Source: Thermodesulfovibrionales bacterium (GTDB taxonomy: Bacteria; Nitrospirota; Thermodesulfovibrionia; Thermodesulfovibrionales; UBA6898). From it: a DNA stretch of 64,000 nt. The position numbers were made by a program, and so were the translations under genes. The stretch covers positions 15,189 through 79,188 of the forward strand of contig JBIOIY010000007.1 in the NCBI GenBank assembly GCA_044450345.1. Reading direction: 5' to 3'. Under the pieces are notes generated by a model. The model saw only the letters and a program-made list of their open reading frames with translations, was not told the DNA's origin and searched no databases. Positions 40,493-55,848 of this stretch are shown in pieces; position 1 is the first letter of the stretch; every line of letters starts with the position of its first letter.

Positions 40493-41086
40493 TTAGGCTG
40501 CCTCCTCCTCAAGCTCCTCAGACCCTGGGGCCTCTTCCTCTTCAGCGTTGCCCGCCGCTTCTGTACCCGAAGCGGAACCGGTAGTGGCAGTTGTGTCCTT
40601 TTTCTCTGCGACATCTTCGCTCGTGATAGAGCCAAATAGACCACCTTCCGGTTCGCTCTTACCTTTTTCCGGTTTCTTTGCATCCTTAGCGTCAGCCTTT
40701 ACTGCTGGCTTCGCTGTCGTCGCCGGTTTCTTGTTTTTCAGCGACTTGAGCGTCTCATTAAGGGCCTCGGTGCTCTCGTTGATCGCGTCTTCCAGGCTCT
40801 TCGCCGTCTGGAACCTCTTGCTGATTTTCTCCTCGAATGTCTCGGTGAGGACCTCCGGGGATTCAGCGAAGGCGAGCACCTTATCCAGCTCCTTCGATGC
40901 CTTATCAATCGCCTCGATAGACGCCTTGGCGTCCTTGTCGTTGCTGTAGGAACTTTCTTTCTTGATAAGGCTGTGGGTGTTTTTGTACATAACGCCAAGC
41001 CTGCCGTCCTTGTTCTTTTTGACGGTGATGCTGATGCTGCCGTCGTCGGGGATATAGTTCTGCAAAAGGGTAAAGTTGATAAGCAT
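40493..41086 (-). CDS. Probable PRTRC system protein E
   Basis: First gene of the module; AESPEVL segment, Lys/Ala-rich linker, GLFG motif and acidic tail. Confidence 0.65.
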   Translation of the reverse strand: MLINFTLLQNYIPDDGSISITVKKNKDGRLGVMYKNTHSLIKKESSYSNDKDAKASIEAIDKASKELDKVLAFAESPEVLTETFEEKISKRFQTAKSLEDAINESTEALNETLKSLKNKKPATTAKPAVKADAKDAKKPEKGKSEPEGGLFGSITSEDVAEKKDTTATTGSASGTEAAGNAEEEEAPGSEELEEEAA

Positions 41087-41364: not shown

Positions 41365-42640
41365 TTGACATCCTCCCCATCCTAAAAACGAGGATTCCAG
41401 GGAAGCGGCTTATGCCGCTTCCTTTCGGGTTCCTGCTTCATCGAGGGGCCTTACTGCGCCGACCTCTCCACAGGCTAACACGGCATGCCCTGCCGCTAAA
41501 ATATTCAGTGCAGCTACATAGTCGGCGTTCGCCGTATAGCGACATCTGAGACATCTAAAAACAGATTGTGAGCTTCGATTATTGGGGTGGATGTGTCCGC
41601 ACTCCGGACATCTCTGGGATGTATGCTGAGGTGGTACCACCACAAGGTGTCCGCCTCTCCACCATTGCTTGTAATCGAGCATTCTTCGGAACTCATACCA
41701 GCCTTGATCGAGTATCGCCTTATTCAGGGCAGACTTCTGCCTGACCTTCTTCCCAGGATTCTCCTTTGTTCCCCTTGCCGTAGACGACATGTTGATTACC
41801 TTCAGGGCCTCCATTGCGACCAGAGCGTGGTTTTTGCTTATGGTCGTACTGATTTTGTGAAGGTAATCTTTCCTCGCAGCGGCTATGCGTGCGTGAACTG
41901 CATTGACCCTGGCCCTCTGCTTATGCCAGTTCTTCGAGAACTTCACCTTTTGAAACAACTTCCGCTGTTGCTTGGCCAGTTTCGTCCCGAGTGTCTTAAG
42001 ACTGTTTAGCGGCTCGAAGAACGTTCCATTGGACAGAGTGGCAAATCTGGTAACGCCCATGTCGATACCAACCGCATTTTTAGAGGGGTGCACTGGGTCT
42101 GCAACTTCGATCTCGACTTGGATGGCTACATACCAGTGCTTCCCATGACGTGAAACGGTAATGTTCTTAGGGGTCCCCTCGATCTCTCTACTCTTAAAGA
42201 AAGGCACCCAGCCTATCTTCGGCAAATAGATGACATTTCCATTAATCACAAAACTCTGCGGATATCGGAAGGAATCATGGGTGCCTTTCTTCTTGAACTT
42301 TGGGAATCTCGACGTCTTATCAAAAGCATCCCGGATTGCCCTATAGAGATCCTTCAGTGTCTGTTGAAGCGGCTGTGAGTGAACCGCACTCAGAAAGCAG
42401 AGGTCCCTGTCTTTTTTCCAATCCACCAACAACCCGGCCAGTTCGTTATAAGATAGATAAAACTGTTTGTTTGCCAGGCGCTCTTTTTGTATGGCAAGAG
42501 CTTTATTCCAGACAAATCGGCTACAGCCGGAAGACTGCCGCAGCTTCGCTTCATGGTGAGGTTTAGGTTTAAGACAAAATCTATAGCCTTTTCGTATCAG
42601 CATCTTGGTTATTTAATGGAATCGGTTCCTGTTTGTCAAG
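41365..42640 (-). mobile_element. tnpB-only IS200/IS605-family element (left boundary approximate)
   Basis: Right end reads GGAATCCTCGTTTTTAGGATGGGGAGGATGTCAA on the minus strand, ending at 41365; no tnpA. Confidence 0.7.
41410..42603 (-). CDS. tnpB: RNA-guided endonuclease TnpB
   Basis: N-terminal HTH (GCSRFVWN); RuvC D (GIDMG), E (AMEAL) and D (NADYVAALNI); CPEC..CLRC zinc ribbon. Confidence 0.93.
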   Translation of the reverse strand: MLIRKGYRFCLKPKPHHEAKLRQSSGCSRFVWNKALAIQKERLANKQFYLSYNELAGLLVDWKKDRDLCFLSAVHSQPLQQTLKDLYRAIRDAFDKTSRFPKFKKKGTHDSFRYPQSFVINGNVIYLPKIGWVPFFKSREIEGTPKNITVSRHGKHWYVAIQVEIEVADPVHPSKNAVGIDMGVTRFATLSNGTFFEPLNSLKTLGTKLAKQQRKLFQKVKFSKNWHKQRARVNAVHARIAAARKDYLHKISTTISKNHALVAMEALKVINMSSTARGTKENPGKKVRQKSALNKAILDQGWYEFRRMLDYKQWWRGGHLVVVPPQHTSQRCPECGHIHPNNRSSQSVFRCLRCRYTANADYVAALNILAAGHAVLACGEVGAVRPLDEAGTRKEAA

Positions 42641-42839
42641 GGGCAACGGACGGGCAACGGACACATTTTATATTCCCTTCCCTTGAAGAAACGGGGTCTT
42701 GCGATGCTACCACGATAAATAGGCATTACTGATCTCCTTTCACTGTGTGGTTAGCGAAAAAAGTCTAAGGCGGTAAGGCAACGCATCTTGACAAGCTTAT
42801 GGATGTTACATCCATTAAGGATGCTGCGCAGCTTCGCTC

Positions 42840-43004
42840 TTATCGCCAGACTTCCTGCGCTATTAAGACTCTCAAAAAGGTTTCTTTGGGCCAGCTGTCT
42901 TCCGATGTACAAAGGGTTTCCAAAAGAAACTGTTCGGTCAACTTCCGCGCATTACGGTGGTCTTTGCTGTTGATCAGCTCTACAATCTCTAATGTTCCGC
43001 GCAT
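42840..43004 (-). CDS. Small hypothetical protein
   Basis: Not in the ORF track. GGAGG RBS; MRGTLEIVELINSKDH..VLIAQEVWR*. Confidence 0.4.
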   Translation of the reverse strand: MRGTLEIVELINSKDHRNARKLTEQFLLETLCTSEDSWPKETFLRVLIAQEVWR

Positions 43005-43037
43005 ACTGCTTCCCTCCATAATAACGCCCGCCCTCTG

Positions 43038-44147
43038 TTATTTCCGAACGGGCATAATAAGGCAGATATAGTCCAGTGACCCATTGTTTGTCATGAGCGC
43101 CGGTGTCAGGGGCTGAGCAAAAGACAATGTCACCTTCTCGGTGCCGGATTTCTCGAACATGGCGGCTGCATCAAGTAAAAACCCGGGATCGAAAGCGGTT
43201 TCAAAAGCCGCGCCGCCGTATTCAACGTCCAAGCTGTCTGTTGCCTCACCGACTTCATTCGACCCCGTTGAGATATTAAGTTTCTTCTCGCTGATGTCGA
43301 GCGAAACCGCCCTTTTGCCCTCTTTTGTCAGGATCATCGCCTTACGAAGCGAACCGGCCAGCGCCGCAGGCTCGACCACGACCTTCTTGTCGTTGTCGGC
43401 AGGTATCACCGCCTGATAATTTGGATATGACCCCTCGATAAGACGGCCGAGAACATCGACCTCTCCCGTTTTGAACAATATGTGGTTCTTGCTGAAATTG
43501 CAGGTGATGACAGTTTCCTCGTCAAGAAATTTTCGCAGTTCTATCGCGGCTTTCCTTGGGACAATGAGTTTCCTTTCATCCCCTTCGGCCACAACATCTT
43601 TGGTCATAAGGGCCAGCCTATGCCCGTCTGTTCCGACGATGGTCAGCTGCTTCTGGTTCGGGGTCAGGTGAAAGAGCAGTCCATTAAGGGCGTATCTGGT
43701 ATCGCTTTGCCCTGTGCAAAAGACGGTTTGCTCAAGCATCGTTGCGATTTCACCGGCCTTTAGCGAGAAACTACCCTCTTCCTTCATATTCGGCCAGGAA
43801 GGGAAGTCCTTAGGAGGCAGGCATGCAAGTTTGAATTTGCTTTTCCCGATCGACACTGCCAGCCATTCAGGCTCCTTGGACTCAAGGGTAATGTCTCCCG
43901 CATCCATTTCTTTGATGATCTCCAACAGCTTGCGAGCCGGTGGGCAGGTCTGCCCTTCTTCTATCACTGTGGCTGTCAAGGGTTCGCGGACCCCGACGTT
44001 AAGATCTGTTGCCCTGATTGTCGTTTTGCCTCCCCGCGCTGTTAAAAGAAAGTGAGAGAGTATCGGCTTGGTCGAGCCTTTGTCGACTATATTTGCGATA
44101 CCTCCGAGTGCCGTGCGAAGATCGTCTTTTGTTACCGTGATTTTCAA
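43038..44147 (-). CDS. dnaN: DNA polymerase III beta sliding clamp
   Basis: PILSH, ATDL, TRYALNG, VGTDGHRLA, LIEGSYPNY and terminal LIMPVR; AGGAGG RBS with TTG start. Confidence 0.93.
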   Translation of the reverse strand: MKITVTKDDLRTALGGIANIVDKGSTKPILSHFLLTARGGKTTIRATDLNVGVREPLTATVIEEGQTCPPARKLLEIIKEMDAGDITLESKEPEWLAVSIGKSKFKLACLPPKDFPSWPNMKEEGSFSLKAGEIATMLEQTVFCTGQSDTRYALNGLLFHLTPNQKQLTIVGTDGHRLALMTKDVVAEGDERKLIVPRKAAIELRKFLDEETVITCNFSKNHILFKTGEVDVLGRLIEGSYPNYQAVIPADNDKKVVVEPAALAGSLRKAMILTKEGKRAVSLDISEKKLNISTGSNEVGEATDSLDVEYGGAAFETAFDPGFLLDAAAMFEKSGTEKVTLSFAQPLTPALMTNNGSLDYICLIMPVRK

Positions 44148-44212
44148 TGTGGGAACCTCCTGTTTAATAGTGGAATAGTGCCTTCTGTGTATCAGTATGC
44201 TCGGACAGAAGG

Positions 44213-44353
44213 CTATTTCTGTTTTGCGGGAGTCTTCTCCCTGCGTGTTCTTTGCTCTCTCGCCTTGGAAAGAACCTTTTTGGCTTCAATATCAATCGCA
44301 AAGTTTGAGAGCTCTTTCCTGGTCTCTTTCGTAATGACTGTTGAAAATCTCAT
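44213..44353 (-). CDS. Small basic hypothetical protein
   Basis: AGGAGG RBS before MRFSTVITKE. Confidence 0.45.
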   Translation of the reverse strand: MRFSTVITKETRKELSNFAIDIEAKKVLSKAREQRTRREKTPAKQK

Positions 44354-44370
44354 GTAGCCCTCCTTTGTTT

Positions 44371-44559
44371 TTAGATAGGCAGCCCGAATGTAAAGCCAAG
44401 CCGCCAGCATCCGGCTTTGTCACTGCCGATGGGATGAGGATTGTCGGGAAGCGCCGAAGCATGACGCAACCCCAGTGAAACCAGCCGATAATGCTTCTTA
44501 CATGCGGCCTCACCCTGGCAAAAAGCTGTTTCGTCAAATTGTTCTTTGATGTATTCCAT
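44371..44559 (-). CDS. Hypothetical protein
   Basis: AAGGAG RBS; 62 aa. Confidence 0.45.
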   Translation of the reverse strand: MEYIKEQFDETAFCQGEAACKKHYRLVSLGLRHASALPDNPHPIGSDKAGCWRLGFTFGLPI

Positions 44560-44592
44560 AGAGTCTCCTTTTGTGATGGCGCTCGGCAGTGG

Positions 44593-44964
44593 CTAGGTTT
44601 TCCAATGGAAGTCGGGGCAAAGGAGCGAGCTTAGACTGTATATCTCCGCCCCAGCTGAGGTACACTCGACGGATAGTTTGCAGTCACCGCAAGCAGGCTG
44701 CCGCATGCGCACCACACGCACGATGTTAAGCTCCAGACTAAAGTCGCAGACATCGCAATACAGCTTCTCGATCACGGTCTCTCCCTGCTGGTCGGTCGGG
44801 ACAGTGAAAGATGCCGGTGGTGATATGGGCGCACTCTTATGCGTTAATACGCGCACCTTCATCTGCCCTAGCCGTTTGCACCTTGGGCACACGAATTCAG
44901 AGGGCAGCAACAAGGCATTCGACTGAGCTGAGGAGGCCCCTTCAAAAGTTATGGAACGAAACAC
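44593..44964 (-). CDS. Cys-rich hypothetical protein
   Basis: GAGGTG RBS; several CxxC motifs. Confidence 0.5.
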   Translation of the reverse strand: MFRSITFEGASSAQSNALLLPSEFVCPRCKRLGQMKVRVLTHKSAPISPPASFTVPTDQQGETVIEKLYCDVCDFSLELNIVRVVRMRQPACGDCKLSVECTSAGAEIYSLSSLLCPDFHWKT

Positions 44965-45018
44965 TACATATCACCTCTTTTCGCAGTAATTTCCCGGGGG
45001 ATAATCACACAGATAGCC

Positions 45019-45306
45019 TCATCCTCTTATCCTGCGCTGGGGACACTTCTGAAACCGGCAAGTGTTGTCGGTCCCAAGCGCAGCTGACACAAGGTTCGTT
45101 TTGAGAGTTTCCAAGCGGTCCGCACTGACTTTCGGCTCTTCCTTTTCCCAAATGATCGAGGCGCTTTTTACACAGCCATCGTTGGGAACTGCCACGTGCC
45201 CCTTGAAACGCCGGCATTTATGGATGACGCTGAAAGGGACAGTGACAACATCTCCTGCTGCAGTTTCGTTGATCCCCTTTTTTCCTTGCTCGACAGAAAC
45301 GACCAT
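45019..45306 (-). CDS. Hypothetical protein
   Basis: GGGAG RBS; co-oriented with its neighbours. Confidence 0.4.
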   Translation of the reverse strand: MVVSVEQGKKGINETAAGDVVTVPFSVIHKCRRFKGHVAVPNDGCVKSASIIWEKEEPKVSADRLETLKTNLVSAALGTDNTCRFQKCPQRRIRG

Positions 45307-45460
45307 ACTTATCTCCCTTCCGCCGCCTCTATGGCAGCATTAACCATTTCTATGACTTCTTTTCCGTACTTTAGATTTCGGGTGCCGCTCATGGATGCTG
45401 CGTTTTCAAATGTGGATTTTTCCATGGCGACACCCCCACCTAAATATTACTTTTTGACTG

Positions 45461-46639
45461 CTATGCTGCTACCTTTTGCAGAGTTTCCTGGACGGACGGC
45501 CGACCATAATAACTACGAAGATCGTCAAGGTCTTTGGCACAGGATCTTGCGAGTTTAGATGTGTCAGAGGCCAATGACCCTATAATCCTGATCTTTTTGT
45601 CATTCCAAAGTGGATCATGGATATAGTAGTCCGTCTCCGTTTGCTGCTTTGCCGATGGCGCGTAACCGTCTTTCAAAAGAGTTATTGGACGAAATCTGGA
45701 ATGAACAAGGCCAATTCTCAGCTTGCTCAGGTGGAGCAACTTTCTGACAATTATTTCGAAAGGCTCATTATGGTTATAGAGAACGAAGCATCTGATGTTG
45801 CGTACATTATATCCCTGCTTATCCAGTCCCTCCACGCATTTGTCCACCATCGGAGCCATATCGTATGACCCGTCCCAAGCAATCCGGATATTGGTCACTC
45901 TGCATGCCTTCAGTAAGGGAATAAGATGAAGTTTCTTCGAAAGTATCCTTACGTCAAAGCCCCCTTGTATCTCGATAGACGATAGGGGCTTTCCGTTGAG
46001 TTTAAAGTCGGCGAGGTTCCCGAGAAACGTTTCGACATCGCTTCGGGCAACAATGTTATTGTCGTTAAGTATGAGTTTCCTCATCTTAATCCTCTTTGAG
46101 AAGTACTCCCACGGATACTCTTCATATCCAAATCGCCATCCATAGCAGAAACTACATTTTCTGATACATCCGGAACTTGCTGCGTCTATCTGGGTTCTGA
46201 CTGTCGACGGAAGCAGATCATAGGCAGGGGTGACGGCCTCTGCATCTTTTAGTTTCCCAATGTGAACATCTGCGTAAGGGAACGCTTCACGGTAAAGATC
46301 AGGGTCCAAACTTGCATGCACACCCCCAATTCTTATTGTCGCCGCCGGATAAAGATTATGATACTTCTCGATGCACGGCTTTACATAGTCCTGAAACCAC
46401 CATGAAAAAACCGTAGTGATACCAATCAGATCAGGAACAAAGGGTATCCCCTCCCTCAAGAATAAATTGCCTTCCTTCTCCGGGTACAAGACATTGCCAT
46501 CGTCGAAATGTAAATGGACGTTATCGCCTTGCTCTCTGTGATAGGCGGCCAGTTTCAATAAGGGATACGGGAAATACTTAGCCGGATCCTTTAGTTTTTT
46601 GGGCTTAGGCCAGTCTGGCACAACAAGTAAAACATTCAT
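45461..46639 (-). CDS. Radical SAM protein with N-terminal cobalamin-binding-like domain
   Basis: PYPLLKLAAY, DLIGIT.VF and GGVHAS, then GCIRKCSFC (CxxxCxxC) and LNDNN; AAGGAG RBS at 46639 (alternative start 46681). Confidence 0.8.
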   Translation of the reverse strand: MNVLLVVPDWPKPKKLKDPAKYFPYPLLKLAAYHREQGDNVHLHFDDGNVLYPEKEGNLFLREGIPFVPDLIGITTVFSWWFQDYVKPCIEKYHNLYPAATIRIGGVHASLDPDLYREAFPYADVHIGKLKDAEAVTPAYDLLPSTVRTQIDAASSGCIRKCSFCYGWRFGYEEYPWEYFSKRIKMRKLILNDNNIVARSDVETFLGNLADFKLNGKPLSSIEIQGGFDVRILSKKLHLIPLLKACRVTNIRIAWDGSYDMAPMVDKCVEGLDKQGYNVRNIRCFVLYNHNEPFEIIVRKLLHLSKLRIGLVHSRFRPITLLKDGYAPSAKQQTETDYYIHDPLWNDKKIRIIGSLASDTSKLARSCAKDLDDLRSYYGRPSVQETLQKVAA

Positions 46640-46815
46640 TACGACTCCTTCCTGATAAATTTTGCGTTCGGGCTTCTTCATATCGGCAATTATTTTCAGG
46701 CCGACAATATTTCGGAGTTATTTCACCCACCCGACTCTAAGAGGCAAAGCGATATCTGGAACCCTCAACATACTGCTTGATAATTTCCGAGGTCGTATCC
46801 ATATTCCTCCTTCCC

Positions 46816-48456
46816 TCACGCTGCCTCTTCAATCGGGGCGTTGCCGAGGTTTAGCATTTTCTCCCCGTCTTTGGTGATTATTTTCACATGGGCTGTGCCG
46901 GGCTCCCAGATGATGCCGAGTATATTCCACGGGGATATCTTCGCGGTCCAGAAGCCCTTAAAAAGGTCGTCCCGCTGATATTTTCCGCTTATGTTCTGCA
47001 GATCATCCGATATCTCCTCGTTGAAGCTATTTTGCTGTGTCTCCCAGCTGTCTCCTTCATCGCTGCGGACCTTCTCAAAGACAAAGGTGTCGAGCCCGAG
47101 ATTGCGGAAGTCATCCGCCGCCAGCGAGTAGTAAATCGCTCCATCGCACCAGTTGTCGATCGCCGCAACGACAGGCACGCTCTTTCCTACGCACGAGATT
47201 GTTGCTTTTGCCCAACTGTAGTTACCCTGAAACTGGCCTGCGGTATCGGTGGTATCGATATCGATGTGCACCGTGCGTTCCTTCACTTCAACCCAGCCGG
47301 GCCGCCGGTCGCATACTGTGCGTTCAGTGACAGCCCTTTCGGGGAGGGCGATGATCGTATCTACCTCATGTAACTGTTCGCCATCGACTACAAGATCAAT
47401 GACCTCGTTTTCAAGAGCCCTTTTCTCTTCTTTCCCGATCAGGACAAGTTCCTTGCTTGGTCCCCACTCTTTCCCGGCATATGGCTCGTCCTGTAAATAA
47501 TAAAAACGGCTCAGGGAGTTCAGTTGCTCCTGTGTCCCGAAAACAGAGAGAAACTTCATGCGCTTCGCGAGGTCCTCTACGTTATTATTCGAACGGTCGT
47601 TTATATACGACACGCAGTACTCCGCTGTTTGTTCGCGGACAAAATCCAGAAACGTGTTCCAGCTGTCATCCCGCTTCATTTTCTCTCTAAAGGGCAGGAC
47701 GGGCGTCAGAGGACTCCCCGTTGTTATGTCGAGGATAACGCTGCGGCGACAGTCATTTCTTTCGTGCGGGATTTTGATGCCGTACCAGATAACGAGGGGC
47801 AAGGCGGCATTCTCGATATCGCTGCCGGAGTAATACCGAACGTCTGAAAGTATCGATTCTTTAATGCCAAGGAAATTATCTTTATATGTCGTCTTAATGA
47901 TGAATTCCCCGTCACTGGCGTGTTTCCGCTCGACGGCCTCCCCGTTGAGGGTTATGTCCATCGGGAAATACTTCAGCTGCGCCCTGTGCAGATTCAGATC
48001 AACTTTGTCCGACAGCACAATCTTTACGAAGAAGCCTTCGCATGTGTCTTCGCGGTTGACTCTGCCTAAAATGGACTCGCGATAGGGCTTGTCGTTTAGC
48101 AAACGGGTAGCATCTACCGTCACACTCCCAAAAAGGCTACGGAAGATGATCTCCGTTGCTATTGATACCAAGTGGAAGATACCAAATCCGGCAGGATTCT
48201 GGTCCCGCACAGTTTCTTCATCCCAGCCCGTATCCGCGAGCACAAAAAGCGGTTCTGCATGTTTCGCGCCCCGCCCATTGTCCACCGCGGTAAGCACGTT
48301 GTCTTTAAGTGTAATCGTGAGTTGACTGGCACGAGCGCGATGCGAATTCTGAGCTATTTCCACAAGAGAAGTCGATGGGTCACTGAAAAAGCATGGTAAC
48401 AACTTAAATAGTCTATCTGCATTGATCATATGCATCTCCTCTTTTGATTTGTTCAT
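46816..48456 (-). CDS. GHKL-type ATPase domain protein
   Basis: EIAQNSHRA, DNGRG and GFGIF boxes at the N-terminus; long unknown C-terminus. Confidence 0.75.
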   Translation of the reverse strand: MNKSKEEMHMINADRLFKLLPCFFSDPSTSLVEIAQNSHRARASQLTITLKDNVLTAVDNGRGAKHAEPLFVLADTGWDEETVRDQNPAGFGIFHLVSIATEIIFRSLFGSVTVDATRLLNDKPYRESILGRVNREDTCEGFFVKIVLSDKVDLNLHRAQLKYFPMDITLNGEAVERKHASDGEFIIKTTYKDNFLGIKESILSDVRYYSGSDIENAALPLVIWYGIKIPHERNDCRRSVILDITTGSPLTPVLPFREKMKRDDSWNTFLDFVREQTAEYCVSYINDRSNNNVEDLAKRMKFLSVFGTQEQLNSLSRFYYLQDEPYAGKEWGPSKELVLIGKEEKRALENEVIDLVVDGEQLHEVDTIIALPERAVTERTVCDRRPGWVEVKERTVHIDIDTTDTAGQFQGNYSWAKATISCVGKSVPVVAAIDNWCDGAIYYSLAADDFRNLGLDTFVFEKVRSDEGDSWETQQNSFNEEISDDLQNISGKYQRDDLFKGFWTAKISPWNILGIIWEPGTAHVKIITKDGEKMLNLGNAPIEEAA

Positions 48457-48511
48457 TAATGAAGGAATGTTAGATACCGGCTATCTTCAATACAATCTAA
48501 CGAGCAGGTGT

Positions 48512-49504
48512 TTAGGCGGCCTCACATAGCGGGGGTTCTGTCGCCATCAGAGCGTCCCTATAATCCATCTGTCCGCTGATAGAGAGAAATTCGTCGACAG
48601 CGTCTTCTTCTTTTGCCCTGGCAAAGCCCTCCTGAAAGGTGACAATATCCTTAAAGGTGTGATGCCAGATGTAATCAACTTCTTCGGCGGGTAAAAGCTT
48701 CTTCTCTCTTATATACTTCGTCATCGATCCGGGTCGCGCAATCCCTCCCCTTGTTCCCTTGACCGTGCTTCTCCAGAGGCCTTCGCAGCTTCTCAGGCGT
48801 GGGTGCGCTCTCGCTTCGAGTCTCACTATTCGCCTTAGAAGATCCAAAGGATATCCATCAAGTTCATGGGGCTTAACCGCAACGCAGAAAAAACAACTGC
48901 TCTTAATCGGTAACGGAAGACCAGCCCGCTGTATCTGTTTTTTACATTCCTCTCTGTCCCATCCCCATTCCTGAAGTGGCATACGATACTCGTAGAGATG
49001 CGTGTCTTTGGGGTTAGCCGAATACGTGCGCCGGCGGTCCGCCGGACTATCGTCAAAGCCGATCAATTTGATAACCCTCATATGAACCGACCAGGCAAGA
49101 CGAGCAGGATCCCATTTCTTTATGTAGTCATGTTGTGGCCCTTGCTTCCACTTGGATGAACAACTGGCCGGTCCGAATGACACCCCGGGCAACGTTCCGT
49201 TAGTCAAGAGATTAGTTTCAAGATTGTGATAAGGCGGATAATTCTTGAAATTCTTCGCTTGGTATTTGACCGTAACAATAGGCGGGAAGCCCTCTTTTTT
49301 AAGCCACTCTTGTATGACGGGCTTGAAATCGTATGTCTCGCGCCGCTCAGCACCCGTATCTGCGAAAAGGATGAGATCGGGCCGCTGTCCACACATGACC
49401 AGGCCTGCCAGTAAGGCTGTGCTGTCTATGCCCATGCCATAAGCTACGACGACTGGAGCTTTGATGTCCTTATACAACATTGCAAGCTGTTTCAGTTTGT
49501 TCAC
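48512..49504 (-). CDS. PAPS-reductase-like (PP-loop) protein
   Basis: AYGMGIDST, LFADTG.E..ETY, SCSSKWK, PLQEWGWDR and SSCFFC. Confidence 0.8.
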   Translation of the reverse strand: MNKLKQLAMLYKDIKAPVVVAYGMGIDSTALLAGLVMCGQRPDLILFADTGAERRETYDFKPVIQEWLKKEGFPPIVTVKYQAKNFKNYPPYHNLETNLLTNGTLPGVSFGPASCSSKWKQGPQHDYIKKWDPARLAWSVHMRVIKLIGFDDSPADRRRTYSANPKDTHLYEYRMPLQEWGWDREECKKQIQRAGLPLPIKSSCFFCVAVKPHELDGYPLDLLRRIVRLEARAHPRLRSCEGLWRSTVKGTRGGIARPGSMTKYIREKKLLPAEEVDYIWHHTFKDIVTFQEGFARAKEEDAVDEFLSISGQMDYRDALMATEPPLCEAA

Positions 49505-49615
49505 CTCCTTTCCTTAAATTCAGTCACCCTAATGACTCTCTCTCCCGGGGTACGGGAAAGGCGCTCCCGTATCCCGGCTTTATCATTGGTGTGCCAGAAT
49601 TTGTGAGAGCTTTTC

Positions 49616-50056
49616 CTACTGGAGAGCGGCTGCTTCCCGAGCGTCCTCATCCGAACAGCCCCGGGCCTTTGCTTCCTTGTAACGAAGCTGCCAATCAAAC
49701 CATCTGAGGTGATCTTTTTTGTCTTCTTCGTCGGTGATAAGATCAAGACGGGGGTTACCCGGGATGATGCAAACTGACTGCACAACATGCATCCTTGCCC
49801 TCCGTTCCGCCTCTTTCTTACTCTCATACCCCGAATGAGCGCACTGAGGTGTGAATTCGCCTCCTATAAGCTGGTATTGCCAGGAGTGCTTGATACGGGA
49901 GAACACAACTGCGATCGTGTCGACCATGACAATGGTAGGCCCACCTTCTGCGTCCTTGATAAAAGACTGCATTTGCCTGGAAGCCTCGGATTTGGCTTCT
50001 TTCACAGTCCTTCCCTTTCCTGTAAATCCGTAATACTCCATGCTGATGGTTTTCAT
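49616..50056 (-). CDS. Hypothetical protein
   Basis: AAGGAGG RBS before MKTISMEYYG. Confidence 0.6.
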   Translation of the reverse strand: MKTISMEYYGFTGKGRTVKEAKSEASRQMQSFIKDAEGGPTIVMVDTIAVVFSRIKHSWQYQLIGGEFTPQCAHSGYESKKEAERRARMHVVQSVCIIPGNPRLDLITDEEDKKDHLRWFDWQLRYKEAKARGCSDEDAREAAALQ

Positions 50057-50084
50057 ATGAACCTCCTTCGGTGAAAAGTGAGCG

Positions 50085-50447
50085 CTATTGAGGGCTGAAA
50101 AGACAGGGCTGTGAAGCGCTAGAAGAGTTGGCGGATGTGATCGCAGATGTCCCTTCCCTTTGCTGATGGGCAAGAAGTACTGCTGCGCGTGCAGTCCCAC
50201 TATTAGGGCCGCACCCTTCAATCCCCTCGTGGTCGTAAAAACCCATTTCGAGCGCCTTAAGGTCTCTTTCTGAGTGAAAGTCCACAAAAGGACCTGAGTG
50301 CCCACTGGGGCGGCGGCAATAAGTCCCTGGTGCCGCATGGCAGTTTGGACACTCTACTTCAAACGGCGGGTCTTGCGGGAACTCGTGGCAACAAACAGTA
50401 CAGCGGACAGGATGACGCGGTTTCCCAGCAGGTTTAAGTTTTCCCAT
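50085..50447 (-). CDS. Zinc-finger protein
   Basis: CTVC; CPNCHAAPGTYC..H..FH motif; AGGAG RBS. Confidence 0.6.
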   Translation of the reverse strand: MGKLKPAGKPRHPVRCTVCCHEFPQDPPFEVECPNCHAAPGTYCRRPSGHSGPFVDFHSERDLKALEMGFYDHEGIEGCGPNSGTARAAVLLAHQQREGTSAITSANSSSASQPCLFSPQ

Positions 50448-50471
50448 AGATCTCTCCTATTGTTGGGTCTA

Positions 50472-51188
50472 TTAACGACGAACCTCGGTGAAGTTGCGTA
50501 AGATGTATTCCCTATCGTCGAAAGACAAGGATATCTTCACGCAGTACTTCGCGTCGGGGGCCACCTCGGTTATGTCATAAAGCTCGGGGTCAAGATCGGG
50601 CACATCGAGATTCATCTCGGCTATCGCAGGGAGAAAACGCTTTGGTAGGCGAAAAGCCTGGAGCAAACACGTCTTCACGTAAAGGCGGTGCTGTCGCCCG
50701 TCGCGTCCCATGCCGAAGACGTTATCTCCCACGGCCAAGTGCAGTCCTATTACCATCAGTCCCTCTACCGGATGCCTGAGAATCAACGCATTGTCAGAGA
50801 GGACCTTGATGATCTTAATGATGTCTTCGGTGGTGTAGTAGCTCCCGCACAAAACATATCGCATCAACTTACGTGCGTCCTTCTTCGCCCTTTGTTTGAG
50901 GCAAAAGGAGTGCAGCTTCTTCCCCAGCTCGCCTCCCAGCTCGGCAATTTCCTTATGTTCTGCCTTCTTGCTATTGAACGTATAACAGTACGATGACGAC
51001 AGGAGCCCCTTAAGCCGCTTGCCTTCAAGATAATCCTTAAAGGATTTTACAGAGAGAGTCCTGACCTTTTCTGCCAGCTTCTCTTTGTTGCTGATTACTT
51101 CCTCCTCCGCTTTCACGTAATCCGGCACCGTCACTCCGGCCAAGCCAGCCGACAGCTCATTGGCGAAAGATGTGCTTTCATTTAACAT
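50472..51188 (-). CDS. Hypothetical protein
   Basis: AGGAGG RBS; 238 aa. Confidence 0.6.
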   Translation of the reverse strand: MLNESTSFANELSAGLAGVTVPDYVKAEEEVISNKEKLAEKVRTLSVKSFKDYLEGKRLKGLLSSSYCYTFNSKKAEHKEIAELGGELGKKLHSFCLKQRAKKDARKLMRYVLCGSYYTTEDIIKIIKVLSDNALILRHPVEGLMVIGLHLAVGDNVFGMGRDGRQHRLYVKTCLLQAFRLPKRFLPAIAEMNLDVPDLDPELYDITEVAPDAKYCVKISLSFDDREYILRNFTEVRR

Positions 51189-51253
51189 CGAAACCTCCTA
51201 AAGGGAATAGTTAACGAGACAGGACCTCTCAGGAGACCCTGTCTCGTCTGACA

Positions 51254-51487
51254 CTAAACGAACGGGCCGCGGATGGGATATTTGCGATGCGACTTGACCA
51301 TCACCAATTTCCCTTTAACTCGGCCTTCGGAGTCCATTTTCCCAAAGCGTATCCCGTGGGCGTAGCCGGTATTGACGGCTCGCCGGTACGCTCTATTGGC
51401 CTCCTCTAAGGCCTCCGCGCGGGTGGCGTAAGGCTCTGAGGTCAGTAAGGGAAAACCAGACCCGTGGACAGCGACGAACCCGTACAT
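51254..51487 (-). CDS. Hypothetical protein
   Basis: GGAGG RBS; TGATG coupling to the upstream gene. Confidence 0.55.
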   Translation of the reverse strand: MYGFVAVHGSGFPLLTSEPYATRAEALEEANRAYRRAVNTGYAHGIRFGKMDSEGRVKGKLVMVKSHRKYPIRGPFV

Positions 51488-51918
51488 CAGACCACCTCCT
51501 CCTGCTCCCTGAAATCGGCAGCAAAAGCAGCATGCAGTTCTGATATTTGGGCCTCAACCACAGCAAGCCTGCGAAGTGCCTCGTCCCCGGATTCACAGCC
51601 CTCGGACTCGGATATTTCCCTGACTAAAAAAGCAAGGAGCCCGTCCCCATAAGTCTGTAACTCCTTCTTCTTTGTGATGTATGAGCCTTCTCCATCGCTA
51701 TAGTTAGCGAGGACGAACCTCTGATAACGATCGAAAGTACTCGGGGCAACTTCGGCCCTGGGCGTACAATCTGCAGCGTCAAGGCGGGGATCCCATAATT
51801 CTTGTATCCCTTGGGCGCCAGCCTCTTTCTTTGTGCCGGCGCTGATAGTGGTCTGGCCAAGTTCGAATTCTTCGTTCTTGCCGCCCATCGCAATAACTTT
51901 TACAAAGTAGTAGGGCAT
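51487..51918 (-). CDS. Hypothetical protein
   Basis: AAGGAGG RBS; 143 aa. Confidence 0.6.
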   Translation of the reverse strand: MPYYFVKVIAMGGKNEEFELGQTTISAGTKKEAGAQGIQELWDPRLDAADCTPRAEVAPSTFDRYQRFVLANYSDGEGSYITKKKELQTYGDGLLAFLVREISESEGCESGDEALRRLAVVEAQISELHAAFAADFREQEEVV

Positions 51919-51949
51919 GAAACCTCCTTTTCATTGACAGATGGATTTA

Positions 51950-52846
51950 TCAGGCAGCGGCGGCTTTGATCTCCCAGACACCGCGCTCAACATTCGAGAA
52001 GAATCGCTGGAGGACCTGCCTTACCTTCGCCTGCCAGTTGGGGTTGAGGCGGGTCCGTTCATTTGCTGCTTCCGCTACAGCCTCGTATATCGATGGCAGA
52101 CTTGCTCTTCCCCCAAGTTTAGTGAGCGCCCAGCCAATAACTGCCTTCCACGTCGCGTTGGAGAGTGAGACAAGATTTTCACTGGTTGCGACTGCGGCAT
52201 CAAGAATCCCAAACACCACGCGCTCTTTCCTTGCCTGGATGCAATATTCATGCATTATAGGAATAAACTTACCCGAGTATGTGGTCTCGTTGCTTCGGCA
52301 GTTGTGTTGCTCTTTGATTACAACCGATGTAACAACTCCGGGCATCATCTTAATAAGGTCCGCCTGTATCGACCAAAATTGACCACTCTTTCTTACATCC
52401 CCGATTAAGACGGAGTAATTACCTTCGGGAGCAAGGGCGTCATAAATGTTGTAGAGACAGAGCTGCATTTTCGATAAAAATTCTTCTTTTGATTTGCAGT
52501 GGGAAAGGTCATCTGGATGTGGGGTGTTACCCCAGACGCTGCCGGAATACGGTATGCAATTATGATACGGTGGATGAGCCCAGATATATTGAGGCCTGTC
52601 CCCTCCAAGCCGCTCAATGAGGCTATCTCGCACGAGGTTGAACCCCGAGTGCAGGTCCAAACCGACGAACCGTATCCCGAGATCTCGCGCAACATCAGCA
52701 CTTGTCCCGCCGCCTAAGAAAACGTCGACGAAAAAGTCCGGTTTGAAGAACTTCAACAGATCAACCAATAAATGCCCGGAACAATTTCCTCTCCACTTTG
52801 GATTACCCCACGGCCCTCGGTCTGGATATGAAACGATCGACTTCAT
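51950..52846 (-). CDS. Amino (N4C/N6A) DNA methyltransferase
   Basis: DVFLGGGT (SAM-binding) and HPPY (catalytic-type); SYPDRGPWG..RGNCSG N-terminus. Confidence 0.8.
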   Translation of the reverse strand: MKSIVSYPDRGPWGNPKWRGNCSGHLLVDLLKFFKPDFFVDVFLGGGTSADVARDLGIRFVGLDLHSGFNLVRDSLIERLGGDRPQYIWAHPPYHNCIPYSGSVWGNTPHPDDLSHCKSKEEFLSKMQLCLYNIYDALAPEGNYSVLIGDVRKSGQFWSIQADLIKMMPGVVTSVVIKEQHNCRSNETTYSGKFIPIMHEYCIQARKERVVFGILDAAVATSENLVSLSNATWKAVIGWALTKLGGRASLPSIYEAVAEAANERTRLNPNWQAKVRQVLQRFFSNVERGVWEIKAAAA

Positions 52847-53088
52847 TTTGTAGGTCCCTCCTGTTCGCTAGCATTGCCCGGGAGTGAAGACTCACCGGCG
52901 AGCACTTCCGGCATATTACCTCCGCATTTGATACAGAAGAGGCCGTTTTTGTTGCGGATATCGCTCGCCACATGGTGGCCGCACTGCTCGCATTTATACT
53001 GCCACCATTTGCGAACGTCTTCGGGGTCGGCTTCCTGAAGCTCTCTTTTTAAGGTTTCTAACTTCTCAATCTCGACAATAATTGGCAA
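52843..53088 (-). CDS. Small zinc-ribbon protein
   Basis: CEQC..CIKC; AGGAGG RBS; ATGA overlap with the methylase. Confidence 0.55.
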   Translation of the reverse strand: MPIIVEIEKLETLKRELQEADPEDVRKWWQYKCEQCGHHVASDIRNKNGLFCIKCGGNMPEVLAGESSLPGNASEQEGPTK

Positions 53089-53218
53089 GATATCCTCCTT
53101 TTGGTACTCCTTGATTTTGTTTGTACGAAAAAAGCAGAGCCCGCCTCTCCTTGCAGCAATCCGCAGGAATGATGACGGGCTCTCTCCTTATCGATAGCGT
53201 GAAATTAACTCTGCCTCT

Positions 53219-54637
53219 TTACACGACGACGTGTCTCATAAAGAACCTTCTTAGAAACAGTGCCACCATACGGCCAATATTCTGATCCAGTTGCTCGGAG
53301 TAGAAATTTCGTTCGAACACATCCTCCAGACTGTTTCCCTGCATTCCAACATAGCCGGCGCCGACTTTTGCACGCTTGCTCAACTGCTGCACGTACTCCT
53401 GGTCCTCTTGAGCGACCTGGGCATCTGTGAGAAAAAGGGTAAAGGAATAGTCGCAGGGACGGTTGCCGGCGGAAAGATAGTTTTCCCCTCCGCCCCAAGC
53501 GGCGAACCGGCACAAGATATCGATATCCTTGAGAGGCACATAGATAGGATCACGGCTATCGGTCGTAGTGATCAGGAGGTCCACGTCAAAGACTTCCGAC
53601 AGGATGTACGCGATGGTCGAGCCATTTTGAAAAGGGTCGCCCTGCATCGAACCGCTGCCATCCAATATGAGCAACAAACGCTTTAGTTTCAATACGGAAA
53701 ACGTCTCGACTGCCTTACGAAACGGGGCAAGCGGAGGGTTATCAATCCTTCGCGGGTCGAACCTCCTGCCCGACAGCGCAAACTCCATCTCAGTGCGACT
53801 CTTCACATTGAGCAGTCTTCTCAGTATCCGGGCCTGCTCAGCGATATAGGCCAGATCCCATGAAAACCATGCCTCCCCGAAGTGTTCCTCGGCATCCGTG
53901 ATTTCTGTGGAGCTGCTGCCGCTTCCGTAAGGGTTCTCGGCGGACGGCTCACCTTCTCCTACGGCCGCAGCGGCTGATTTCTCTATACTGCCCAGTCCAG
54001 AACCGCCCGATTCGTAGTTGTCAAAGAGAAATCTCCACTTATCGTAGAGGTCCTTGGCATACCCACAGACAATCAAGGTCGAGTCGGCTTCGATGCTTCG
54101 ATCAATGAAGTAGTCCCAGTCTTCGCAAAATTCGGCATACTGTGTCTCCGAAAGCTTTTCAGGCCTCGCCGTGGTAGTTTCCAGACCGCTTCGGCGCCAC
54201 CTCAGCAAGATGCCGATGTTAAACGGGTTTGAGAACTTCTCGGCGTCCTCATCAGAGAGATAGTGTCTGTTGTAGGAGTGTGAATGGAGAGGGAAAAAAT
54301 TGCAGTTCCGCTTTGGCTCAATCCTGGCGTCTTCAAGGATATTCAGGAGTGAAAACGGAAACGACAGCGTCGTACCGTTTATCCCTCTGCTTGTGTGAAG
54401 CACGTGCGATATCTCATGCTCCATCAACAGGTCGGCAATCTCACTGAGTTGCTCCTCTTCGACACCCTCGACCCCAAGCTGTATGGAACGCCGCTTGTGG
54501 TCCCACCAGGACTCATCGCTTTTTGCGGTGACTCTAAGAGAGAACCTCTCGTCTCCCGTGAGAAACCCTGCTGTGAGTTCCAGCCGTTTCTGAAGGGATT
54601 GAAGCGACAAAGGCGCTATGGTTACCAAGGCGCTCAT
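53219..54637 (-). CDS. vWA-domain protein with N-terminal HExxH motif
   Basis: HEISH..NILEDARIE; LILDGSGSM (MIDAS); FLTD. Confidence 0.8.
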   Translation of the reverse strand: MSALVTIAPLSLQSLQKRLELTAGFLTGDERFSLRVTAKSDESWWDHKRRSIQLGVEGVEEEQLSEIADLLMEHEISHVLHTSRGINGTTLSFPFSLLNILEDARIEPKRNCNFFPLHSHSYNRHYLSDEDAEKFSNPFNIGILLRWRRSGLETTTARPEKLSETQYAEFCEDWDYFIDRSIEADSTLIVCGYAKDLYDKWRFLFDNYESGGSGLGSIEKSAAAAVGEGEPSAENPYGSGSSSTEITDAEEHFGEAWFSWDLAYIAEQARILRRLLNVKSRTEMEFALSGRRFDPRRIDNPPLAPFRKAVETFSVLKLKRLLLILDGSGSMQGDPFQNGSTIAYILSEVFDVDLLITTTDSRDPIYVPLKDIDILCRFAAWGGGENYLSAGNRPCDYSFTLFLTDAQVAQEDQEYVQQLSKRAKVGAGYVGMQGNSLEDVFERNFYSEQLDQNIGRMVALFLRRFFMRHVVV

Positions 54638-55848
54638 GCTGCCTGTAACAGATCGCTGATGGCCTCCAGTTGACCTGCCTCCGGGTATCCCATAGGGTCG
54701 CGCTCAAGAACGCGAAACAACCATGTCATAGCCGCGGCCTCTGCGAGGTCGACGCCCCGCGATATCACATCGGCCCACTCAAGGAGAGACCCTGTATCAA
54801 GCGGAACCGGAAGCCTGCCCTGACGGTACTGTTCTCTAATACCCTTTGTTAGCTTGGCCAGCCGCTTGGCGGTGTCTGCTCCGACTTTTCGCTCGAGTAA
54901 TTCCTTTTCTTTTGCAACATCGTAATCCATAAAAACAAAGACGGGGAAACGACGAGCGAGAGCCGGATCGAGTTCGCTGGTGTCAGAGTAGCCCAAATTC
55001 GCCGTTGCAAAGAAAAGGAGATTCCCGACCGGGACCCTTATGCGTTCGCCGGTCGTGATGTCATGAAGCGTATAAAAGCCCGCCTCATTATCCAAGGCCT
55101 TCACCAATAGATTGCGAAGGGAGCGACTGCTTCTCATCACCTCTTCAAGAATGACAACCACCTTCTTTTTCGTGGCTGCATCAAAAGCAGCCCTGAGTTC
55201 CCCCACTAAGCGGGTCCAGCCCTTTTCTTTGTCCGGAAGGAGTTTCTGCAATAAGTCAACGTCTTCAAGGCCGTCTGTAATGTTGATGGCATGAATCTCA
55301 TATCCGGAGGCGTTTAATAACTCGCGCACCGCATGAGTCTTCCCGCTGCCGGTCGGGCCAAAGGCGAAGGCCGATTTCCATAACTCAAGGGCCATGGCTA
55401 GTCTCGTGCCGTTGGCAACCTGAGGTACGCCTTCATCCAGGATCTTGTGGATCTGTGCGCGTTTTGTGGAATTAAGATCCTGAAAAACAAGGCAGCAGTG
55501 TTTGCACATGTACTCGTCTGACCCCGAGGTCTTGCGTTTCTTCCAGTACTCACACTTGCTTTCAGTTTCTTTATCGCTTTTTACGACCGATGTGTCGCCA
55601 CACCAAATTGTGAGAAGCCCGGTCTTGCGGTCCTTCGCGATCAGCACGTTATGCAGAGACGGCCCGCCGTTGCTTGCGTCCTTATTGACGACCTTGAAGC
55701 AGATCGCTGGCTGCTCCGTGGTTTCTCCTATAAACTTAACCGGGACGGTCTTCTCTTCCCTTATGAACATTGACGCCAGTTTTTTACTGTGGGCGCCACT
55801 ATGCAAGGCATATAAATTATCGAGATGTTCCCAAATCTTTTTTGCCAT
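54634..55848 (-). CDS. MoxR/CbbQ-like AAA+ ATPase with N-terminal SWIM-like Zn finger
   Basis: C..CKH; GPTGSGKT; ILEE (Walker B); ATAN; LDPALARRF. Confidence 0.85.
   Translation of the reverse strand: MAKKIWEHLDNLYALHSGAHSKKLASMFIREEKTVPVKFIGETTEQPAICFKVVNKDASNGGPSLHNVLIAKDRKTGLLTIWCGDTSVVKSDKETESKCEYWKKRKTSGSDEYMCKHCCLVFQDLNSTKRAQIHKILDEGVPQVANGTRLAMALELWKSAFAFGPTGSGKTHAVRELLNASGYEIHAINITDGLEDVDLLQKLLPDKEKGWTRLVGELRAAFDAATKKKVVVILEEVMRSSRSLRNLLVKALDNEAGFYTLHDITTGERIRVPVGNLLFFATANLGYSDTSELDPALARRFPVFVFMDYDVAKEKELLERKVGADTAKRLAKLTKGIREQYRQGRLPVPLDTGSLLEWADVISRGVDLAEAAAMTWLFRVLERDPMGYPEAGQLEAISDLLQAA

Follow-up and report, generated by a model that had tools for sequence, protein, structure and literature searches.

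Three adjacent genes on a PRTRC-type island

The window analyzed here, a 64,000-nucleotide stretch of a Thermodesulfovibrionales genome, represents the last 64 kb of a 79-kb contig (assembly of 3.19 Mb in 86 contigs, 91% complete) and carries, from ~27 kb to the contig end, the gene content of a PRTRC-type mobile island. Within a long series of co-oriented minus-strand genes, this island encodes a radical S-adenosylmethionine (SAM) enzyme, a GHKL ATPase and a PP-loop protein next to each other, a trio which a first-pass annotation had proposed as an undescribed DNA or nucleotide modification cassette. The three adjacent, co-oriented open reading frames (ORFs) and their domain calls hold, the B12-binding-like N-terminal domain of the radical SAM enzyme being a weak call:

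45461-46681, minus strand: radical SAM enzyme with a B12-binding-like N-terminal domain, 406 amino acids for the longest ORF (392 from 46639), ending Ala-Ala
46816-48456, minus strand: predicted GHL-type GHKL ATPase, 546 amino acids, Bergerat fold plus transducer, ending Ala-Ala
48512-49504, minus strand: PP-loop (PAPS-reductase-fold) protein, 330 amino acids, GTG start behind AGGAGG, ending Ala-Ala

The PP-loop and GHKL genes are separated by 55 bp, and the GHKL and radical SAM genes by 134 bp, or by 176 bp if translation of the radical SAM enzyme starts at Met15 (46639), which is probably the case, since its homologues and the Atlas record begin there.

The radical SAM enzyme carries a nearly invariant CxxxCxxC motif (C172/C176/C179) and matches phrog_9298, a 'radical SAM domain protein' (E 4.8e-26). 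Its match to the Pfam B12-binding model PF02310 reached E 1.3e-4 (22.3 bits; cut-off 32.1 bits); precomputed PF02310 and/or PF04055 assignments exist for many of its homologues, and its Atlas neighbour clusters are named cobalamin-dependent. By word search, the family comprises at least 472 proteins, and the clade close to the window enzyme is rare (13 relatives, 44-58% identity), searches of metagenome and of viral contigs for this clade returning one distant match each (28% identity). In a third phylum, the gene was found in 1 of 381 genomes, on a 6-kb contig on which two of the three genes downstream of it have no PDB sequence match. Profiles of the radical SAM and PP-loop families likewise returned no matches in a PDB sequence search.

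The GHKL protein has no match in Pfam, NCBIfam or PHROG. Across 22 aligned sequences, the residues E33, N37, D59-x-G61-x-G63 and G90/G92 are invariant, motif I reads NxxR, not NxxD, and a PVLPxR motif is invariant in the transducer region. The family profile matches the MutL N-terminus (residues 41-94, E 0.0023), and the structural model (predicted local distance difference test, pLDDT, 83.4) matched TRAP1/Hsp90 in Foldseek (E 8.4e-12 over ~450 columns), with VIA Z scores of 14.4 for TRAP1 (328 aligned, root-mean-square deviation 5.3), 12.8 for MORC2 and 12.2 for MutL over residues ~1-400; no match was obtained for the C-terminal ~150-250 amino acids. On the strength of these motifs, the MutL profile match and the Hsp90/MORC2/MutL-like model, the protein is assigned by its predicted fold to the GHL-type (Hsp90/MORC/MutL-like) ATPases, with a transducer and an unmatched C-terminal part, in agreement with the earlier GHKL call. 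Its weak PADLOC match is to PD-T4-9_A (E 1.9e-4). The close family numbers 22 proteins by word search, and exhaustive HMMER searches retrieved 2337 cluster representatives (E<=1e-3), of which 123 remain at E<=1e-30, this wider set being made up of proteins of ~530-650 amino acids with the first ~300 residues in common. Atlas neighbours are annotated as 'ATP-binding proteins', some with HATPase_c_3, and a genome scan located the family at 19 loci in Nitrospirota, Desulfobacterota-type, Syntrophorhabdaceae and Bacteroidales metagenome-assembled genomes (MAGs).

The PP-loop protein matched phrog_424 (E 2.8e-23), fell below the cut-off of Pfam PAPS_reduct (E 5.7e-4, 20.4 bits; cut-off 22.5 bits), had no match in NCBIfam and a weak one to SspD in PADLOC (E 1.1e-5, 23.3 bits). 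Its PP-loop motif, YGMGIDS, occupies residues 22-28 (conserved G23, G25 and S28), and the SSCFFC motif lies at residues 202-207, where K201, S202, C204 and C207 of KSSCFFC are invariant in a 25-sequence alignment; four cysteines are conserved in total (C115, C187, C204 and C207). The model (pLDDT 86.0, predicted template modelling score 0.84) found its best Foldseek matches in PAPS reductase, TtuA and [4Fe-4S] LarE (E 3.4e-5 to 1.4e-4). The family comprises at least 1403 proteins, and the gene is present in 4 of 401 genomes of the window's phylum, the window's genome included (E<=1e-10), and in 2 of 401 genomes of another phylum (E<=1e-30). The 111-bp gap immediately upstream of the window PP-loop gene, at the edge of an inserted block described below, contains a 13-pair G+C-rich hairpin (49545-49577).

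Proposed partners of the radical SAM family

Loci of the radical SAM family were collected by whole-genome profile searches and from viral contigs (wider-family alignment), together with L010, L097 and L098, giving 28 loci beyond the window, in which the neighbouring genes were annotated by Pfam and PADLOC; the count includes L097, L125, L132 and L133, which are too short or unannotated. In five of these loci (L108, L111, L126, L127 and L128), a HATPase_c_3 GHKL gene of ~525-555 amino acids lies no more than two genes away from the radical SAM gene. The related loci L127 and L128 contain genes of 392/367 and 563/562 amino acids, followed by the GHKL gene (525/524 amino acids) and the radical SAM gene, with 4-bp overlaps. 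A 543-amino-acid GHKL gene, small ORFs and the radical SAM gene follow each other in L126, a GHKL fragment comes after the radical SAM gene in L111, and L108 has the order DpnI_C, GHKL (552 amino acids), a 334-amino-acid gene and radical SAM. The GHKL proteins of L108, L127 and L128 are related to one another, with E values of 1e-24 to 1e-26 across ~370 amino acids.

The adjacency was compared with a control consisting of a simple GHKL-motif pattern applied to ORFs of >=300 amino acids. The pattern detected 4 such ORFs in the genome of the window (3.19 Mb), 2 in the PP-loop loci (1.0 Mb; a single locus represented twice) and 5 in the radical SAM loci (0.36 Mb). Within 3 kb of the 28 radical SAM genes, 0.21-0.34 GHKL-motif ORFs were expected and 4 observed (Poisson P 7e-5 to 4e-4); treating the related pair L127/L128 as one locus lowers the observed number to 3 (P 0.001-0.005). 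These enrichment figures are rough, the loci being few and partly related.

Genes for other nucleoside triphosphatases (NTPases) precede the radical SAM gene at further loci. A ParB_N protein (485 and 476 amino acids; 54% identity between the two) is encoded directly upstream of the radical SAM gene in L109 and L110, so that the ParB-radical SAM pair occurs in two families of the same phylum. L108 (9439-13790) and L109 (7766-10863) are one chromosomal locus, with the same DpnI_C, radical SAM and MgsA flanks, in two congeneric species; between the DpnI_C and radical SAM genes, the 552-amino-acid GHKL gene and the 334-amino-acid gene of the former are swapped for the 485-amino-acid ParB_N gene of the latter. 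The 334-amino-acid gene was considered as a PP-loop gene and rejected (hhalign probability 0.1%), and it does not resemble the ParB partner of L109. In L129 (3963-10309) and L130 (4163-10382), homologues of PbeA (HKD-helicase, E 2.6e-217) and PbeC/DndD (E 5.9e-163) and a gene of 147-154 amino acids are followed directly by the radical SAM gene, an arrangement reminiscent of a Pbe-like system to which a radical SAM enzyme has been added. Further neighbours include C5 methylases (L118, L120 and L122, of which L123 is a near copy), DpnI_C or methyl-directed restriction endonuclease (REase)-like genes (L108 and L109), GmrSD_N together with Mrr_N (L110) and a BglII-like gene (L131). Since methylases, modification-dependent nuclease domains and Pbe genes thus surround it, the radical SAM family is placed in the setting of DNA modification and restriction conflict.

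Taken together, these results lead us to favour, tentatively and with slightly less than even confidence, a model in which the GHKL and radical SAM genes of the window form one functional two-gene module of an undescribed class, combining this radical SAM family with a DNA-clamp NTPase and probably acting on DNA. Clamping onto or scanning of DNA is established for MORC/MutL, ParB and SMC-like ABC ATPases. The phrog_9298-like radical SAM enzyme with its B12-like N-terminal domain would be paired with an NTP-driven clamping or scanning partner. Candidates for this partner are a GHKL ATPase of the GHL type, a ParB-domain protein and a PbeC/DndD-like ABC ATPase together with the PbeA helicase-nuclease. 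This partner would load onto or scan DNA and deliver the radical SAM enzyme, which would then introduce a radical-based, possibly cobalamin-dependent, change into the DNA. On the island, which also encodes a DarB-like protein and an orphan methylase (listed below), the likeliest role is a protective mark, which would shield the DNA of the element itself after its entry, alongside these two proteins. Whereas the genes, folds, motifs, synteny and neighbourhood statistics are as described, the physical partnership of the two proteins, the DNA substrate, the chemistry and the protective role are what we infer from them.

Several observations weigh against this model. Both kinds of genes favour variable 'conflict' regions, which inflates chance adjacency, and the radical SAM loci are partly redundant (L117-L121, L122/L123, L127/L128 and L129/L130) and were annotated with crude longest-ORF gene calling. 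No GHKL gene lies within two genes in 23 of the 28 loci, and no recognised partner was found in L112, L115, L116 and L124, several of which are viral (L115, L116 and L124). The window GHKL itself is related to one of the radical SAM-linked GHKL proteins through the N-terminal motifs alone (57 columns, E 7e-5), and BLAST connects it with none of them. The intergenic distance of 134-176 bp in the window compares with 4-bp overlaps in L127 and L128. By tblastn and profile hidden Markov models on six-frame ORFs, 18 of the 19 loci of the window's GHKL family are without a radical SAM gene, the exception being L010, in which a GHKL gene of the window's own family lies 6 kb from the radical SAM gene; in the closest islands, L002 and L003, the GHKL gene belongs to the backbone and directly precedes the PRTRC genes. 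Finally, the B12-binding match stays below the Pfam cut-off, and the substrate may be RNA, protein or a small molecule in place of DNA.

The main alternative, as regards this class of modules, is a role in defence. In such a scenario, which we regard as improbable, the GHKL and radical SAM proteins, like the ParB and PbeC versions, would be a weapon and not a shield, serving defence or exclusion against phages or rival elements, possibly by sensing or damaging foreign DNA or by making an antiviral nucleotide in the manner of viperin-type radical SAM enzymes. The chromosomal radical SAM genes are indeed found among effector-type genes (PbeA HKD-helicase with PbeC, GmrSD_N/Mrr_N, a BglII-like REase, DpnI_C, RES and PIN), and the GHKL proteins of L126 and L108 match the N-termini of PADLOC 'REase_II' models (E 2e-16 and 3e-6). 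The window genes, however, are accompanied by a DarB-like protein and an orphan methylase of the anti-restriction type with no adjacent nuclease, no PADLOC model matches any of the tested radical SAM proteins, and the radical SAM gene lies beside C5 methylases on viral contigs, as predicted by self-protection.

As to the third gene, a full pathway of all three proteins, for instance adenylation or thiolation followed by radical methylation to give one complex mark on the element's DNA, would be suggested by the co-orientation and short gaps, by the conservation of C115, C187, C204 and C207 as in Fe-S PP-loop sulfur transferases and by known phosphorothioation, in which, according to PMC12914056, a PAPS-reductase-domain protein is paired with an ATPase. 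Moreover, a PP-loop gene adjoins the radical SAM gene in 2 of the 28 loci (L113 and L117). In L113 (3107-7157), a 555-amino-acid radical SAM gene (hhalign 99.7% to the family) is followed by a PP-loop gene in two pieces, with one in-frame TGA, and then by a GmrSD_N-like gene of 172 amino acids (PADLOC NsnA-like, E 6e-17); the PP-loop product matches the window PP-loop family profile at E 3.7e-41, with 41% identity. L117 contains a second radical SAM gene, and its PP-loop product matches PAPS_reduct (E 1.2e-6) and PADLOC SspD (E 2.7e-21). The radical SAM genes concerned are divergent. Against a full pathway speak the remaining 26 loci, at which no PP-loop gene adjoins the radical SAM gene, the genome of L010, which contains GHKL and radical SAM genes and no PP-loop match, and the window ATPase, a GHKL protein and not a P-loop ATPase of the DndD/SspC/BrxC type.

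PP-loop genes were found at 0 of the 19 GHKL-family loci and, with the window protein as query, in 0 of five whole genomes with a GHKL homologue. Pfam annotation of 44 proteins flanking GHKL homologues revealed neither PAPS_reduct nor Radical_SAM, the domains encountered being DUF6094 methyltransferases (five loci), RadC (four), SNF2 helicases, LPD domains, PRTRC_E and DnaN. At one of these loci, on a 12-kb MAG contig (L017), an LPD28-domain gene and the GHKL homologue are preceded, at a distance of ~3 kb, by an ORF of the class A beta-lactamase family (5031-5936; Beta-lactamase2, E 8e-39). Conversely, 76 viral PP-loop loci contained neither a radical SAM gene nor a GHKL gene of the window's own type, and a later motif scan of the PP-loop loci detected one GHKL relative, in L030 (duplicated as L031). 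On this viral contig (5778-9098), a 597-amino-acid GHKL relative ending Ala-Ala (hhalign 90% to the window GHKL family) is located two genes upstream of the PP-loop homologue. No second complete trio was thus present in the 19 GHKL-family, 76 PP-loop and 28 radical SAM-family loci. The first-pass annotation had itself taken a lack of co-occurrence in other genomes as telling against the cassette, and this is what was found for the trio. The adjacencies of PP-loop and radical SAM genes in L113/L117 and of PP-loop and GHKL genes in L030 keep the three-part pathway possible, albeit as a very unlikely one. We therefore regard the PP-loop gene as an SspD/TdpC-like gene that moves independently; in phages it mostly stands alone, and it accompanies the radical SAM module facultatively.

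Island setting and C-terminal tails

The part of the window at positions 1-27000 contains chromosome-like genes (histidine kinase, multihaem cytochrome, Cus-type RND efflux set, copper P-type ATPase, Fur and FeoAB), and a flip of GC skew and strand bias at ~27-28 kb marks the island start. No tRNA genes were found in the window, and hence none at the border between chromosome and island. The island encodes a ThiF-like E1, an E2 (PRTRC_B), Prok_Ub (PRTRC_C), ParB, DnaG, DnaN, an ATP-dependent ligase-like protein, a MoxR/CbbQ-like AAA+ ATPase and a DarB-like protein. The ThiF-like E1 scored 246 bits with TIGR03736 (cut-off 144.75) and the PRTRC protein C 48.7 bits with TIGR03738 (cut-off 45.95), with protein B slightly below its threshold (TIGR03737, 125.5 bits; cut-off 131.45). 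The island ParB is shorter and generic, reaching 55.3 bits with the PRTRC-type model TIGR03734 against a cut-off of 278.6. Around the three genes, the island contains the following features:

57518-62503, minus strand: DarB-like methylase-helicase, 1661 amino acids, ending Ala-Ala (phrog_10089, E 0, 1742 bits); island backbone gene
53219-55848, minus strand: backbone pair of a MoxR/CbbQ-like AAA+ ATPase (54634-55848) and a 472-amino-acid partner (53219-54637); upstream edge of the variable segment
51950-52846, minus strand: orphan amino-methyltransferase, 298 amino acids, ending AAAA (N6_N4_Mtase, 29.8 bits, cut-off 26.7; PADLOC MTase_II, E 1.2e-17)
41410-44147, minus strand: DnaN-like sliding clamp (43038-44147) and IS605-type TnpB (41410-42603)
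36890-41086, minus strand: PRTRC cassette of ThiF-like E1, E2/PRTRC_B, a 335-amino-acid protein, Prok_Ub/PRTRC_C and a 197-amino-acid PRTRC_E-like protein; downstream edge of the variable segment
33485-34231, island: PLD-family NucT/DrmC-like nuclease
28500-29174, island: ERCC4 nuclease

The orphan methylase, 2.4 kb upstream of the PP-loop gene, and the DarB-like methylase further upstream were both as annotated before, judging by their Pfam, PADLOC and PHROG matches. The accompanying statement that no restriction nuclease is present applies to the immediate neighbourhood and not to the island as a whole, because the PLD-type and ERCC4 nucleases are encoded further downstream.

The closest islands found are those of a Thermodesulfovibrio MAG (L002) and a Geobacteraceae MAG (L003). 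Common to the window and both islands is a backbone of DarB-like (66% identity in both), ParB, a 227-amino-acid protein, the AAA+ ATPase (62/60% identity to L002/L003), the 472-amino-acid protein (57/57%), three small genes, GHKL (34%), PRTRC_E-like, Prok_Ub, E2 and ThiF. Compared with this backbone, the window has two extra blocks that flank the GHKL gene, the upstream one extending from the methylase through the PP-loop gene and the downstream one from the radical SAM gene through DnaN, plus TnpB; the DnaN, TnpB and radical SAM block, missing from L002 and L003, separates the GHKL gene from the PRTRC genes. Such an arrangement would be expected if the three genes were unlinked cargo, that is, separate accessory or anti-defence genes gathered by the variable segment of the island, an explanation that we hold to be unlikely though far from negligible. 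In line with it, the trio is unrepeated, with no PP-loop gene and one radical SAM gene at the 19 GHKL loci and no radical SAM gene at the 76 viral PP-loop loci, five genomes with GHKL homologues have no PP-loop gene by this query, and the phage neighbours of the PP-loop gene vary widely (terminase small subunit, SNF2, ArdC-N, DUF932, C5 methylase and RusA). It accounts poorly, however, for an adjacency of radical SAM and GHKL genes far above the motif-control expectation, for the PP-loop genes adjoining divergent radical SAM genes in L113 and L117 and for the GHKL relative two genes upstream of the PP-loop gene in L030. Of the proposal of a DNA-modification cassette, as opposed to unlinked cargo, one part gains support, as the radical SAM family repeatedly lies beside GHKL (5 of 28 loci), ParB (two), PbeA/PbeC (two) and PP-loop genes (two) and among C5 methylases and restriction-type genes, and one part does not, the trio as a unit never having been seen again.

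The GHKL family is also linked with the island type. In 10 of the 19 GHKL-family loci, the GHKL homologue and a ThiF gene are no more than 10 kb apart, and on this ground the family may often accompany PRTRC islands, a possible association that has so far gone unrecognised. The ubiquitin-like PRTRC cassette of the window (36890-41086) sits 20 kb away from the island ParB gene. Between dnaN and the PRTRC genes, there is an insertion of the TnpB gene (41410-42603), whose product has OrfB_IS605 and Cas12f1-like TNB domains, and a 396-amino-acid ORF ending EAA on contig C4 (140138-141328) is a possible second copy of it. A megablast of positions 45000-53000 against phage and plasmid collections retrieved no near-identical DNA, a promoter and terminator scan of 44000-54000 gave the same counts as shuffled sequence, and island repeats were uninformative. 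A genome search for the conjugation marker TraG-D_C returned a single borderline match on a different contig, and the element may be an integrative and conjugative element, a plasmid or of another type.

A further feature of the island is the C-terminal dipeptide Ala-Ala, found on 10 of the 22 minus-strand ORFs of >=100 amino acids at positions 34866-62503, compared with 20 of 2700 elsewhere in the genome (binomial P 3e-16). The proteins concerned are the ligase-like, ThiF, PRTRC_E-like, TnpB, radical SAM, GHKL, PP-loop, methylase, AAA+ and DarB-like proteins. Since the codons differ, the tails do not reflect a DNA repeat. Among orthologues, Ala-Ala is found on 3 of 3 complete DarB-like, 2 of 2 PRTRC_E-like, 12 of 19 GHKL and 2 of 9 ThiF proteins, and on none of the ParB, E2, Ub and DnaN homologues; across the families, it is found on 9 of 21 and 11 of 35 GHKL relatives, 30 of 119 PP-loop proteins, 8 of 13 close radical SAM relatives and 1 of 105 distant ones. 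A C-terminal -LAA or -AA resembles the ssrA degron read by ClpXP. The tail may accordingly be an ssrA-like degron, or else a transfer or packaging signal; a literature search on ssrA-like tails returned nothing concerning conjugative elements. If the tails act as degrons or transfer signals, they would bear on the timing of establishment proteins in mobile elements. The idea that the radical SAM enzyme modifies the Ala-Ala tails was dropped, as they are absent at radical SAM loci elsewhere and 1 of 105 distant radical SAM relatives ends in Ala-Ala.

These observations can be combined into a broader and rather unlikely proposal, namely a new class of DNA marking in which a B12-like radical SAM enzyme, delivered by an interchangeable NTP-driven clamp (GHKL, ParB-type or PbeC/DndD-type ABC), writes a novel radical-derived mark, which cells would use with restriction-type effectors and which phages and conjugative islands would use as a shield. 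On the island of the window, effectors and the DarB-like protein would in addition carry the conserved Ala-Ala tail, possibly timing their removal, as an ssrA-like degron, or their transfer.

Comparison with known modification systems

Known modification systems (methylases, Dnd/Ssp/BREX-4/Tdp, deazaguanine and thymidine hypermodification) drive restriction, anti-restriction and the calling of epigenetic signals from sequencing. If the model of a radical SAM enzyme delivered by an NTPase is true, it would add an unrecognised DNA chemistry and a general way to target an enzyme to DNA. None of the three window proteins is named in NCBIfam (2026), PADLOC (2023) has no match to any of the tested radical SAM proteins or to the GHKL proteins of L127/L128, and full-text literature searches (main texts, mostly outside the subscription journals) returned no description of a B12-like radical SAM enzyme paired with GHKL, ParB or PbeC. 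The module of a radical SAM enzyme and an NTPase partner is recurrent and apparently undescribed.

The window resembles the Dnd, Ssp, BREX type 4 and Tdp systems in that a PP-loop (PAPS-reductase-domain) protein is encoded beside an ATPase in a setting of restriction and anti-restriction. In contrast to these systems, the ATPase is a GHKL protein and a radical SAM enzyme is present, which occurs in none of them, and a PADLOC scan of 21 proteins of the island, together with Pfam, revealed no P-loop ATPase of the DndD/SspC/BrxC type, no DndE and no cysteine desulfurase. According to PMC12914056, phosphorothioation requires a PAPS-reductase-domain protein and a P-loop NTPase, and TdpC alone has been reported as sufficient (An et al. 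2025, via PMC12914056). The window PP-loop gene belongs to the same family as the stand-alone PAPS-reductase-like genes of phages (phrog_424), which in the 76 viral loci have variable neighbourhoods near terminase and anti-restriction genes, and differs from them in lying on a PRTRC-type island beside GHKL and radical SAM genes. Phage PAPS reductases cluster in variable regions (PMC13551039), one of them is reported to help in evading Dnd (Piel et al. 2022, via PMC13551039), and a study of bifidobacterial prophages describes PAPS reductases of uncertain role (10.64898/2026.02.18.706556).

The likeness to PbeABCD and the CxC-type ABC ATPases consists in the radical SAM genes directly following the PbeA and PbeC homologues of L129 and L130, and the difference in the window having no Pbe genes. 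According to PMC10853773, PbeA is an HKD nuclease-helicase, and PbeC is a CxC ABC ATPase with a possible role in scanning DNA; in its text, 'radical SAM' is used solely for DndC, in the introduction. With MORC, paraMORC and other GHL ATPases such as Tiamat, the window protein shares the predicted GHKL and transducer fold and the setting among conflict systems, and it differs from them by having no fused nuclease, an unmatched C-terminal third, NxxR in place of NxxD and a radical SAM partner. MORC-type ATPases are linked to restriction-modification systems. Tiamat is an example of a GHL ATPase linked to restriction-modification or defence (10.64898/2026.09.30.754977).

Radical SAM chemistry as such has precedents in the alteration of DNA bases by mobile elements, in thymidine hypermodification and in the 7-deazaguanine pathways (PMC5889632 and PMC8989533). 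These pathways rely on kinases, aGPT-Pplases or QueC/D/E sets, of which none was detected in the window, and the window radical SAM enzyme, unlike theirs, combines a B12-like N-terminal domain with a family association to NTPase partners.

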